From contig JADGEE010000004.1 of assembly GCA_016744535.1 (NCBI GenBank), positions 917 to 64,916 of the forward strand: a stretch of DNA of 64,000 bases, read 5' to 3'. Positions within the stretch are counted from its first letter, which is position 1. Every line of letters starts with the position of its first letter. This DNA is from Campylobacteraceae bacterium. GTDB taxonomy: Bacteria; Campylobacterota; Campylobacteria; Campylobacterales; BB28. The notes beneath the pieces were generated by a model. It worked only from the letters and a program-made list of their open reading frames with translations. It was not told the DNA's origin and did not search any database. Positions 29,251 to 33,187 of this stretch are shown piece after piece. The translations under genes and the position numbers were made by a program.

Positions 29251-30804
29251 ATGACAAAACCATTAAGTAAATTTAGAAAAGATAAAAATAAGTATGGTCA
29301 ATACTTTACTCCTAAAATAATAGTTGATTTTATGATTTCATTAGCCAATATAGATAAAAATTCATCTATATTAGAACCATCATGTGGTGAAGGAATTTTT
29401 ATTGACGAACTTATAAAAAATGGTTATAAAAATATAACTGCTTATGAAATTGACAATAACTTATATAAAAATTTTAATTTTATTAAAAATGAAAGTTTTG
29501 TAAGTAGTGATATTAAAGATAAATTTGATTTAATAATTGGAAATCCTCCATATATTCGTTGGAAAAATTTAGAAGAGGAGTTAAAAAAAGAGTTATTAAA
29601 TAGTAATTTATGGAATGATTATTTTAATAGTTTATGTGATTACTCTTTTATTTTTACATTAAAATCCATTGAGTTATTAAAAGAGGATGGTCAATTAATA
29701 TTTATTACACCTGAGTATTGGTTAAATACTACACACTCTTTAACTCTTCGTAATTATATGTTAAAAAATGGATATTTCGAAAAAATTTATCATTTTAATG
29801 AAACACCAATTTTTGATAATGTAAGGGTATCTACAATAATATTTAAATATATTAAATCAAATAAAAAAGATAAACCTAAAGTTAATATTACAAAATATTA
29901 CTCTAATAGCAAATTAACAAATGATATATTAATTAATTTAAAAAATAAAGAATCAAATATTAATTCAGAGTCATTTAAAATTAATCAATTTAAAACAAAT
30001 GAGAGATGGATACTTGCAAATAATAAGATAAAAAATGAATTAAATATTTTTGAAAAATATTGTAAATCTCATACAATAAGAAATATTTGTCATATAGGCA
30101 ATGGTTTAGTAAGTGGATTAGATAAAGCATTTCAATTAAAAGATAATATTAAGCTAAATAATTATGAAGAGAAAAATAATATTAAAGTCATTAAAGCTAA
30201 AGATTTGAAAGCATATAAATATAATAACATTACTAAATATATCTATATAAATAATATAAAAGATGAAAATGAGTTAAAAAAGAATTTTCCAAATTTTTAT
30301 AGTAAGCTTAGTGAATTTAAAGAAAAACTAGAAAATAGATATCAATATAATCGTAAAATATACTATTGGGAATGGGTTTTTTTAAGAAATTTAAATCTAT
30401 TTTCAAAAAATGAAAAAAGAATTTTCGTACCTTGTAAAGAGAGAATATCTAATAAAAACTATTTTAGATTTGCGTTAGTTAATAAGGGGATTTACCCAAC
30501 ACAAGATGTAACAGCACTTTTTAAAAAAGATGGTATAAAAGAAAGTATATATTATATTTTAGCAATTTTAAATAATTATAGAGTTTTTGATTGGTTAAAA
30601 TATAACGGTATTCTAAAAGGTAATATTATAGAGTTTTCAGAAAAACCAATATCTTCTATTCCTTTTAGAGCTATTGATTGGAGTAATAAATATGAAGTAT
30701 CTATACATAATGATATAGTTACATTAACTAAAGAGTATATTCTTGATAACTCCAAAGAAAACTTATCAAAAATTAACAATAAAGTAGAAGAACTTTTTTT
30801 ATAG
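29251..30804 (+). CDS. Gamma-class N6-adenine DNA methyltransferase, cognate of the HincII-like endonuclease
   Basis: GQYFTP, LEPSCGEGIF, IIGNPPY; directly precedes the HincII-like REase. Confidence 0.88.
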   Translation: MTKPLSKFRKDKNKYGQYFTPKIIVDFMISLANIDKNSSILEPSCGEGIFIDELIKNGYKNITAYEIDNNLYKNFNFIKNESFVSSDIKDKFDLIIGNPPYIRWKNLEEELKKELLNSNLWNDYFNSLCDYSFIFTLKSIELLKEDGQLIFITPEYWLNTTHSLTLRNYMLKNGYFEKIYHFNETPIFDNVRVSTIIFKYIKSNKKDKPKVNITKYYSNSKLTNDILINLKNKESNINSESFKINQFKTNERWILANNKIKNELNIFEKYCKSHTIRNICHIGNGLVSGLDKAFQLKDNIKLNNYEEKNNIKVIKAKDLKAYKYNNITKYIYINNIKDENELKKNFPNFYSKLSEFKEKLENRYQYNRKIYYWEWVFLRNLNLFSKNEKRIFVPCKERISNKNYFRFALVNKGIYPTQDVTALFKKDGIKESIYYILAILNNYRVFDWLKYNGILKGNIIEFSEKPISSIPFRAIDWSNKYEVSIHNDIVTLTKEYILDNSKENLSKINNKVEELFL

Positions 30805-30811
30805 GAAAAAA

Positions 30812-31579
30812 ATGAAATTAGTAAATTATGAAGAGTTAAAAAAGAAAATAGTAGGTACAAAGATACCAAAGCCACTTTCTGGTACATTATCAGGTCATGC
30901 AGCAGGTGAACCATTTGATAAACATGTCTATAGCGAAATAAAAAAAGAGTATCCTAATGATACTTTTAGGCAATATGAATATTTAAATTATCTATTTAGT
31001 AAAAACTTAGATGCAGTAGGAGTTAAAGCTAGAAATTCACTGTTTAACTCTCCTACAGTTATGTTCTTATTAAGTAGAGGTAAAAATGCAACTGATAAGT
31101 GGAGTATTGAAAATCCTTTTGAAGAGAAACAAAATGATACAGCTGATATTCTAGTTACAAAAGATGATTTTTTTGAAATTATAGATATAAAAACAAGAAA
31201 TTTATCAAAAAATGCTCAAGCACCAAATATTATATCTGCTTATAAGTTAGCCCAAGTATGTGCAAGAATGATAGATAATAATGAATTCAACTCATTTATA
31301 ATTAACTATTTTGAAATAGATTGGTTATTAGAAGGTAAAGAGTTAGTTTGCAAAGATATATATTATGTTAATTTATTTAAAACAAATCCACAAGATTTAT
31401 ATATTAATTGGGCAGCTGCTATGCAAATACAATTTCATGTATCAAATCTTAAACAAGACTTTCATTTAAATATGGAAGAGTGGGCAATAAAATATTTAAA
31501 ACATTTTGTTAATCAAGCAAAAAAAAGAGCTGATGATATGATTGAGAAGTTTGTTAAACCATTTGAAAAATATATTTAA
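30812..31579 (+). CDS. HincII-family type II restriction endonuclease (predicted GTYRAC)
   Basis: SGTLSGHAAGEPF, EEKQNDTADIL, DIKTRN, APNIISAYKLAQ, WAAAMQIQFHV match R.HincII as I recall it. Confidence 0.9.
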   Translation: MKLVNYEELKKKIVGTKIPKPLSGTLSGHAAGEPFDKHVYSEIKKEYPNDTFRQYEYLNYLFSKNLDAVGVKARNSLFNSPTVMFLLSRGKNATDKWSIENPFEEKQNDTADILVTKDDFFEIIDIKTRNLSKNAQAPNIISAYKLAQVCARMIDNNEFNSFIINYFEIDWLLEGKELVCKDIYYVNLFKTNPQDLYINWAAAMQIQFHVSNLKQDFHLNMEEWAIKYLKHFVNQAKKRADDMIEKFVKPFEKYI

Positions 31580-31597
31580 AGATAAGAGGATTTAAAA

Positions 31598-32473
31598 ATT
31601 AAAGAGTTAGCAATAATTGGAGCAACAGGATCAGGAAAAAGTGATTTAGCGATAAATTTAGCTAAAAAGAGTAACTCTTATATTCTCTCTTTAGATTCAC
31701 TTAGTATCTATAAAGAGATAGATATTGTTTCAGCAAAACCAACTAAGCAAGAGAGAGAAGATATTTTACACTTTGGAATAGATGAAATTTATATTAATCA
31801 ACAATTTTCAGTCTCTACCTTTTTTGAAATTTATAAAAAAGCAAAATCAGAAGCTATAAAAAATGATAAAAACTTAATTATAGTTGGTGGAACTAGTTTT
31901 TATTTAAAAGCTATGATAAATGGGCTTAGTGAAATAAAAATTGAAGATTCTACAAAAGAGATAGTTAAAGGTATTATGATAAATTTAAAGAGTGCGTATC
32001 AAAAATTACAAGAGATTGATAGCCAATATGCTAAAAAAATTTATGAAAATGATAAATATAGAATAGAAAAAGCTTTAAATATATATTATCAAAGTAAAAA
32101 ACCTCCAACTAAATTTTTTGCTGATTCTAAAAAAGATGCTTTAATTAAAAATTTAAAAATTTATGCAATAGAAGTTGATAGAACTATTTTAAGAGAACGA
32201 ATAGCAAAACGAACAGATAAAATGCTAAAACTTGGTTTAATTGACGAAGTTTTTTATCTTGAAAAAAAATATACAAGAAGCCCAAGTTCTATGGGTGCAA
32301 TTGGAATTAAAGAGACACTAGCTTATTTTGATGGAATCTATAATTTAAGTGAATTAAGAGATAAAATTATTATAAATACTTCAAGATTAGCTAAGCGACA
32401 GACTACTTTTAATAAAACTCAATTTAAAGATATCATTAGAGGGAGCGTAGATGATTTACTAATGTCACACTAA
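31598..32473 (+). CDS. miaA: tRNA dimethylallyltransferase; apparent ATT start
   Basis: IIGATGSGKS P-loop, LDSLSIYK, SAKP, VGGTSFYLKA, LAKRQTTF. The in-frame segment from the stop at 31583 has no ATG/GTG/TTG before the P-loop; ATT at 31598 follows AGAGGA. Confidence 0.92.
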   Translation: MKELAIIGATGSGKSDLAINLAKKSNSYILSLDSLSIYKEIDIVSAKPTKQEREDILHFGIDEIYINQQFSVSTFFEIYKKAKSEAIKNDKNLIIVGGTSFYLKAMINGLSEIKIEDSTKEIVKGIMINLKSAYQKLQEIDSQYAKKIYENDKYRIEKALNIYYQSKKPPTKFFADSKKDALIKNLKIYAIEVDRTILRERIAKRTDKMLKLGLIDEVFYLEKKYTRSPSSMGAIGIKETLAYFDGIYNLSELRDKIIINTSRLAKRQTTFNKTQFKDIIRGSVDDLLMSH

Positions 32474-32488
32474 ATTTTAAAATTTAGA

Positions 32489-32733
32489 AAAAGAAAGAGT
32501 AATTTTTACCAATAAAAGCCGTAAAGCCCCCACTTTCAAGTATGGGGATATAAGGCAATAGCAAAATTAATGAAGGGTAAAATCTCGGATTTAAAATTTT
32601 CAAAAATACCATAAAAAAAGAGTTGGGACATCGACTCTTAGGTTAGATACTGTAAGACCTCATAAAGAGGCTCGTATCGCTTGACCCTAGAATTCCCTAG
32701 CTTAGCTATGGGGAGTATGTCAATCTTTCTTTT
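32489..32733. terminator. Bidirectional terminator hairpin split by the mini-IS insertion
   Basis: Deleting 32510-32723 yields AAAAGAAAGAGTAA-TTT-TTACTCTTTCTTTT, a perfect 14-bp stem between convergent miaA and the Spy-like gene. Confidence 0.7.
32510..32723 (+). mobile_element. Non-autonomous IS200/IS605-family (ISHp608-like) mini-element with tnpB 3' remnant and omegaRNA region
   Basis: Target TTAC (32506-09); LE with AAAG (32523-26) plus CCCC..GGGG hairpin; tnpB-tail frame RVGTSTLRLDTVRPHKEARIA* (32619-84); RE with GAAT (32690-93), hairpin and terminal TCAA. Confidence 0.88.
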
Positions 32734-33187
32734 ATCTCATTAACTCTTTTAAAACTTTTTTTGAAGCAAATTCAGTTTTAAACTCTCTCTTTTGTTGTTC
32801 ATCTAGTGTAGAGTAAATTTTTTCTATTAAATCTACTCTGCTTTGAATCTTTTTAGCAGATTTTTTTAAACAAATTGAAGCAAATAAATCTTTATCAAAT
32901 TTAGTTTCTGTCAATGTTTCAATTGGAAACTTTTTATTAGCTTTAGATTCACTCATACTATCTCTAAATTTTTCAACTGCTCTTTTTGCTGTTTTAATTT
33001 GCTCTGCACTTGGTGCTGTTTTTGAGAAAGCATTTAAAATAGCACCTACAAGTTTTCCAGATTTATTTTTATAAGAACTCATCATTTTATGATTTGAACA
33101 ACTCATCCCTATGTTTGTATTTTTACAAGCAAATGCACTTGATGCAAGAATAGTTGCAACTCCTAAAGATATTAATATTTTTTTCAT
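32732..33187 (-). CDS. Exported helical protein, Spy/CpxP-like
   Basis: Signal peptide MKKILISLGVATILASSAFA; LTxxQ-like segments PSAEQ and LDEQQKREF. Confidence 0.55.
   Translation of the reverse strand: MKKILISLGVATILASSAFACKNTNIGMSCSNHKMMSSYKNKSGKLVGAILNAFSKTAPSAEQIKTAKRAVEKFRDSMSESKANKKFPIETLTETKFDKDLFASICLKKSAKKIQSRVDLIEKIYSTLDEQQKREFKTEFASKKVLKELMR

Follow-up and report, generated by a model that had tools for sequence, protein, structure and literature searches.

IS608 is about 1.8 kb long and carries tnpA and tnpB. Its published motif pairs are TTAC (CL) with AAAG (GL) at the left and TCAA (CR) with GAAT (GR) at the right (PMC5934647), and at its right end (RE) TCAA lies 10 nt 3′ of the hairpin foot, the hairpin together with GR and CR being the minimal RE for TnpA (PMC3201880). 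Palindrome-associated transposable elements (PATEs) were first named in Haloquadratum (Dyall-Smith et al., 2011; PMC3119063), and PATEs that encode an omegaRNA and need TnpB in trans have already been described, including "omegaRNA only" or PATE-like ISGst elements of Geobacillus stearothermophilus (Meers et al., 2023; PMC10055086). Here we analyze such an element in a 64,000-nucleotide window of a Campylobacteraceae bacterium genome (assembly GCA_016744535.1, contig JADGEE010000004.1, positions 917 to 64,916, forward strand; all coordinates without a contig label refer to this window). Like the PATEs of Geobacillus and Haloquadratum, it has no coding ORF, subterminal hairpins in the left end (LE) and the RE, and no inverted terminal repeats; like them, it keeps the scaffold of the tnpB 3′ end and RE, it relies on TnpA and TnpB genes located elsewhere, and its kind is multi-copy in some genomes. 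Unlike the Geobacillus and haloarchaeal PATEs, it belongs to the IS608 (TTAC/TCAA) group and to the Campylobacterales, and this particular copy stands alone in its genome, is without the tnpA-promoter segment seen in its relatives, and is not accompanied by a working TnpB. With ISHp608 from Helicobacter pylori it shares the target and cleavage logic, the bulged-T hairpin, and the distance of 10 nt from the IPR foot to TCAA, but it is gene-free at 214 bp, and its host belongs to a different family of the Campylobacterales. As in the TnpB omegaRNAs (reRNAs) of ISDra2 and the IS605 family, a structured RNA would be read from the tnpB strand and span the 3′ end of tnpB together with the RE, the guide lies just outside the RE, and the TAM is the transposon target motif, whereas the scaffold of the IS608 subgroup is known from sequence alone and has no matching Rfam family.

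Our analysis leads us to regard the element, with a probability of roughly 85%, as a PATE that was inserted by TnpA catalysis, that is maybe still mobilizable by an intact TnpA, and that carries an orphaned guide-RNA module. As PATEs whose omegaRNA needs TnpB in trans are already in the literature, the element adds a further member, and the concept is not new. It is, nevertheless, a clean example, complete with both boundaries, of a guide-RNA-only IS608-type mini-transposon. It also documents an active multi-copy family of such elements in Thiovulaceae and relatives and adds a covariation-supported scaffold model for IS608-subgroup TnpB guide RNAs, which matched no Rfam family. The view of how such systems work is unchanged, and the present genome shows one in decay.

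The mini-element is 214 bp long and occupies positions 32510–32723, directly 3′ of TTAC (Table 1). The first-pass annotation had described an ISHp608-like mini-element with ends and omegaRNA region at these positions, and all features that it listed were found where it had placed them. It had also argued that removal of the element restores a perfect terminator stem and thereby fixes both boundaries, and this argument holds: the joined flanks read AAAAGAAAGAGTAA-TTT-TTACTCTTTCTTTT, a perfect 14-bp stem with a 3-nt loop, and the target rejoins seamlessly, without a target-site duplication, once 32510–32723 is removed. A restored stem of 14 bp cannot plausibly be due to chance, and the hairpin therefore sets both element boundaries to the base. 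An inverted-repeat search showed that the two ends of the element do not pair with each other, so there are no terminal inverted repeats. The element contains no protein-coding gene; its only ORFs, of 31 and 42 aa, are on the minus strand and unsupported.

All cis-signals of the IS608 TnpA are kept, that is, AAAG with IPL on the left and GAAT with IPR and TCAA on the right, and the assignment of AAAG/TTAC and GAAT/TCAA as guide-cleavage pairs of the ISHp608 type agrees with the published motifs (PMC5934647). AAAG directly precedes IPL, an imperfect hairpin (CCCCCACTT tc AAGTA-T-GGGG) with the bulged T that is typical of IS608, one C-A mismatch, and two compensated pairs. The distance from TTAC to the hairpin foot, 17 nt, is that of the other aligned family members, and the RE spacing is as published for IS608: TCAA is located inside the element, within AGTATGTCAA (32714–32723), and ends 10 nt 3′ of the IPR foot. 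The LE is identical at 42 of 48 positions to that of the mini-elements of a Thiovulaceae genome (G072, see below) and at 39 of 48 to the LE of the full-length insertion sequence (IS) resident in the same genome. Relative to this resident IS, the RE hairpin has a C>T exchange at its first stem base and a loop that is 1 nt shorter, and these changes, together with the C-A mismatch in the LE, might weaken the recognition by TnpA.

Table 1. Features of the mini-element and its insertion site (window coordinates).
Feature	Position	Strand	Description
Order across the insertion			AAAAGAAAGAGTAA TTT TTAC / CAATAAAAGCCGT AAAG CCCCCACTTTCAAGTATGGGG ... GAAT TCCCTAGCTTAGCTATGGGG AGTATG TCAA / TCTTTCTTTTATCTCATTAA
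miaA (IPP transferase)	31586-32473	+	IPPT Pfam E 2.5e-36; same orientation as element
Split target hairpin, left half	32489-32509	+	5′ arm AAAAGAAAGAGTAA 32489-32502; loop TTT 32503-32505
TTAC	32506-32509	+	IS608 target/left cleavage site and TnpB TAM
Left end (LE)	32510-32556	+	guide AAAG 32523-32526; IPL 32527-32547; then GATATAAGGC
Conserved mini-family block	32572-32590	+	GAAGGGTAAAATCTCGGAT; -10-like TAAAAT at 32578-32583
A-rich 20-nt segment	32600-32619	+	TCAAAAATACCATAAAAAAA; private to this copy in alignments; between block and P1
tnpB 3′ remnant	32619-32684	+	21 codons plus TGA stop; reads RVGTSTLRLDTVRPHKEARIA*
omegaRNA-type scaffold helices	32620-32678	+	P1 32620-32637; P2 32646-32650 with 32674-32678; P3 32656-32671
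Right end (RE)	32690-32723	+	guide GAAT 32690-32693; IPR 32694-32713; cleavage site TCAA 32720-32723
3′ flank	32724-32743	+	predicted guide TCTTTCTTTTATCTCATTAA; 3′ hairpin arm 32724-32733; overlaps stop codon of 151-aa gene (32732-32734)
Convergent 151-aa gene	32732-33187	-	signal/lipoprotein-like N-terminus; no Pfam match; terminator hairpin split by insertion
Inferred empty-site junction			...GTAATTTTTAC/TCTTTCTTTT...
Predicted RE-LE circle junction			...GTATGTCAA/CAATAAAAGCC...

The same element, private substitutions included, was recovered in two independent assemblies (one ENA metagenome assembly, one Logan contig of SRR11072026). The Logan contig ends within a 42-nt stretch that is exactly common to the mini-element and the full IS, as would be expected of a repeat. 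An exact-protein look-up of the neighboring gene returned only assemblies that apparently derive from the same sample (SRR11072026; SAMN14087007), both of them occupied, and exact-match scans of metagenome contigs gave 0 matches to the empty site and 0 to the copy-specific junction. In the sister species (G001), the element is absent, and the flanks are about 6 kb apart and in another orientation, so that this genome offers no comparable site.

Frame 2 of the right half of the mini-element encodes the TnpB C-terminus, the equivalent of which reads ...HRVGTSTLRLDTVRPRKEARIA* in the resident full IS (the asterisk denotes the stop codon), and it is in this C-terminal coding region that the helices P1, P2, and P3 of the predicted RNA scaffold are located, the RE hairpin being the fourth helix. 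A single-sequence fold of the mini-element already gives all four. On the RNAalifold structure of an alignment of 15 Campylobacterales elements, full-length as well as mini, 97% of the cells are standard pairs, and changes on both sides are seen in 15 of the 27 pairs. None of 500 shuffles matched any of the observed covariation measures, and pairing fell to 38–53% in a control in which the 3′ partners were slid by 1–3 columns. The element thus keeps the whole covarying RNA scaffold that is found at the tnpB 3′ end of full-length relatives, and it scores 109 bits with the covariance model R1. A search of both strands against Rfam 15 with E-values up to 10 yielded only chance-level matches (rimP leader, SscA), none below E 0.8, possibly because Rfam may lack an omegaRNA of the IS608 subgroup. 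Since P1–P3 are dispensable for TnpA and located where TnpB guide RNAs are encoded, position, homology, and covariation lend good support to a reading of the scaffold as a putative TnpB omegaRNA module, although it has no match to a curated family.

The first-pass annotation had derived the omegaRNA region from the tnpB 3′ end and the RE and had taken the 3′ flank TCTTTCTTTTATCTCATTAA as guide, and we arrive at the same prediction. This predicted guide has no other TAM-adjacent match of at least 11 nt in the genome, as is expected for a homing guide. Apart from the restored empty site, it would have no real target, an arrangement that is canonical for homing (PMC10055086). A 10-nt match beside the element was considered as an additional guide target and discarded, as it is merely the other arm of the split palindrome on the opposite strand.

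Relatives of the element were found by an order-wide search and a pattern scan of species-representative genomes. Protein-less elements with the same succession of LE, block, scaffold, and RE exist in the Thiovulaceae genome G072, in Ca. Thiovulum karukerense, in a Campylobacterota MAG, whose copy is degenerate and lacks the LE, and in genome G299. The family layout consists of the LE hairpin, a small covarying hairpin, a tnpA-type promoter (TGTATAAT or AGTATAAT), CG(C/T)GAAGGGTAAAATCTCGGAT, P1–P3, and the RE. Ca. Thiovulum karukerense has at least three exact-pattern copies, two further copies, and more R1 matches. In G072, six near-identical sequenced copies of about 246 bp are inserted 3′ of TTAC at unrelated sites, and model matches raise this number to roughly ten; the ~246-bp element has undergone a recent burst. 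The same genome has 15 scaffold matches versus 13 TnpB-domain matches, and only three or four of these scaffolds abut a TnpB domain. As the mini-elements of G072 are multi-copy and mostly apart from TnpB domains, they are an active PATE family that exists alongside many tnpB and tnpA genes in those genomes.

Compared to these relatives, our copy lacks the ~62-nt segment with the small hairpin and the tnpA promoter, but it has kept the block, which is identical to that of the G072 mini-elements at 19 of 19 positions and has no counterpart in the resident full IS. From P1 onward, the relationships are reversed: here, the mini-element is 96% identical to the resident IS, a value that also holds for its last 105 nt (nt 110–214) against the IS right end, and only ~75% identical to the G072 mini-elements. 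The latter show the same pattern, being ~97% identical from P1 onward to their own resident full-length IS and unrelated to it upstream. This mosaic has a sharp breakpoint at the 5′ edge of P1, and its simplest explanation is a gene conversion that was confined to the homology tract. One could go further and postulate a Campylobacterales lineage with promoter and guide scaffold only, in which the module of LE and block travels while the P1–RE module is repeatedly swapped for that of the resident IS; we consider this unlikely, and only if the swapping were selected, and not plain gene conversion, would it serve to keep the guide cassette matched to the TnpB and TnpA of each host genome.

The block may act as a promoter of the scaffold RNA. 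Its sequence GAAGGGTAAAATCTCGGAT is identical in the mini-elements of G072 and Ca. Thiovulum karukerense and absent from full-length ISs. In one Thiovulum copy (G086:C27:3562–3962), a variant mini-element in which the TATAAT of the tnpA promoter is fused exactly at the TAAAAT position, this TATAAT occupies the place of the TAAAAT of the block, which suggests that the two are interchangeable −10 boxes. Because the block is invariant amid diverging surroundings and TATAAT is found at the same position, we think that it is a candidate −10 promoter element for the scaffold RNA. A scan for consensus sigma-70 promoters detected none within our copy, and in the Thiovulum copy it detected TTTTCA-16-TATAAT. 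Alternatively, the block may be a diverged and shortened continuation of the tnpB 3′ end. A derivation from the coding region of tnpB RuvC-I (ATCACaaCGGGTAAAA...) was also considered: the similarity was marginal in a Thiovulum mini-element, where 5 of 300 shuffles were as good, and not significant in our copy, where 966 of 1000 shuffles were as good.

Whether the element can move or be used depends on what else the genome encodes. The assembly is a metagenome-derived draft of 3.02 Mb in 174 contigs with 99.98% completeness, and scanning it for copies and cognate genes, as had been proposed along with the original annotation, revealed a single other related sequence, a full IS of 1675 bp (C32:17769–19443, minus strand), with an intact tnpA but without a working tnpB. 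In agreement with this, the covariance model R1 detects two scaffold copies in the genome, those of the mini-element and the full IS, and 0 in the sister species; a second copy of the mini-element was not found in its own genome, in which it is thus single-copy. The resident TnpA is intact with 156 aa (Pfam Y1_Tnp, E 4e-43) and aligns over its full length with the ISHp608 TnpA (PDB 2A6M, E 3.9e-71), including the HUH histidines and the tyrosine of YIENQ. The resident tnpB is a pseudogene. Genome G186 encodes an intact 369-aa homologue (74% identity), and a further intact close homologue, of 362 aa, is encoded in G072. Measured against the G186 protein, the resident gene shows a TAA within the frame, a 1-nt deletion that shifts the frame from +3 to +1, and a 10-aa in-frame deletion, and its zinc ribbon is damaged by the loss of one residue that converts the second CxxC into CxC. 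The TAA and the frameshift recur in the contig of a second assembler (Logan). No second tnpB or tnpA was found in the assembly by six-frame Pfam searches and tblastn, although an unbinned plasmid or a variant strain may carry a tnpB, as the assembly is a metagenome draft. Of the proposal that the element is a mobilizable cassette that could load a TnpB in trans, the first half is in keeping with an intact TnpA, and the second half meets only a pseudogenized tnpB.

These data can be combined into the following scenario. By the IS608 mechanism, a Y1 HUH TnpA would have pasted a single-stranded circle 3′ of TTAC in the 3′ arm of the intergenic hairpin, and the resident intact TnpA may still excise and move the element. 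An RNA of the scaffold could originate from the TAAAAT block or from read-through from miaA, but it would most likely find no nuclease to load. As tnpB is dead, the homing arrangement is left without its nuclease, the retention of the element by RNA-guided cutting of the empty site and copying back is most likely switched off, and the element would be a decaying orphan. It should be added that the TnpB of IS608 itself was inactive in the assay of Meers et al. (2023; PMC10055086).

The alternative to such an orphan is a working mobile guide-RNA cassette that is transcribed and whose omegaRNA loads a TnpB in trans, so that the TTAC-flanked empty site is cut and the element is copied back. The intact scaffold, nearly identical to that of the resident IS, would be compatible with this, as would the conserved TAAAAT block upstream of it, and because the element is parallel to miaA and splits the hairpin downstream of that gene, read-through transcription is possible. 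In other genomes, the same mini-element family co-occurs with many tnpB genes, and for PATEs in general the idea is accepted (PMC10055086). However, the sole tnpB of this genome has a nonsense codon and a frameshift, both present in two assemblies, as well as the CxxC to CxC change, and the searches mentioned above revealed no other TnpB-like sequence. In addition, the element is single-copy and lacks the tnpA-promoter segment of its multi-copy relatives. We therefore regard a functional cassette in this genome as very unlikely.

The full IS is likewise inserted where two convergent genes overlap at their 3′ ends, and it alters both C-termini. The last 14 residues of a Mur-ligase-like ORF (412 aa, Pfam Mur_ligase_M) are IS-encoded (...YVL-PKKSVKPLSLDMGI), with ...YVLL as the inferred end at the empty site, and the TGA stop of a 148-aa ORF on the opposite strand is the complement of the terminal TCA of the IS. 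A further IS608-like element of ~1.05 kb in another genome (G108:C1:503600–505800), in which tnpA and tnpB are internally deleted, is a decay intermediate between a full IS and a mini-element.

A function for the host might also be considered: the insertion might be retained because it serves the flanking genes as a replacement terminator or because it gives rise to an antisense RNA directed at the 3′ end of the 151-aa gene. The insertion splits the only strong hairpin between miaA and this convergent gene, and the suggestion of the first-pass annotation that termination between the two genes is disrupted is plausible, as it fits the geometry. On the strand of the 151-aa gene (minus strand, 32600–32640), P1 reads as a hairpin with a T7 tract behind it, which results from the A7 of the copy-specific A-rich insertion, and this terminator-like hairpin with its U7 could, in the predicted fold, partly replace the split one. 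A transcript that leaves the RE would run antisense to the 151-aa gene around its stop codon. However, with −4.6 kcal/mol the hairpin on the minus strand is a weak one that a terminator scan did not report, there is no conservation, the sister species having a different gene order and no element, and nothing separates a co-opted element from a neutral insertion into a permissive site. The chance that the host makes such use of the element is, in our view, slimmer still than that of a working cassette.

Finally, given that the right 105 nt almost match the resident full IS, one might suppose that no transposon was inserted at all and that the element is what remained when a full IS at this site recombined or was deleted. 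This is hardly credible, as its left and central parts carry the mini-specific block of other genomes, which is absent from the full IS, so that the mini architecture is older than the insertion, and as elements of this architecture move as whole units in G072.

Some further observations concern miaA, next to which the PATE is inserted. The miaA frame is open from 31586, where the N-terminal P-loop AIIGATGSGKS is encoded, and as there is no in-frame ATG, GTG, or TTG before 31913, its start codon is probably non-canonical. In the region 29251–31579, a HincII-type restriction endonuclease (Pfam PF09226, E 5.7e-136) is encoded directly upstream of miaA, and the 517-aa ORF that precedes it is taken by us, on account of its NPPY-type motif, to be the partner methyltransferase. 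At the other end of miaA, a perfect AT-only palindrome, CTAAATTTTAAAATTTAG, at 32470–32487 overlaps the stop codon and is located just upstream of the split hairpin.
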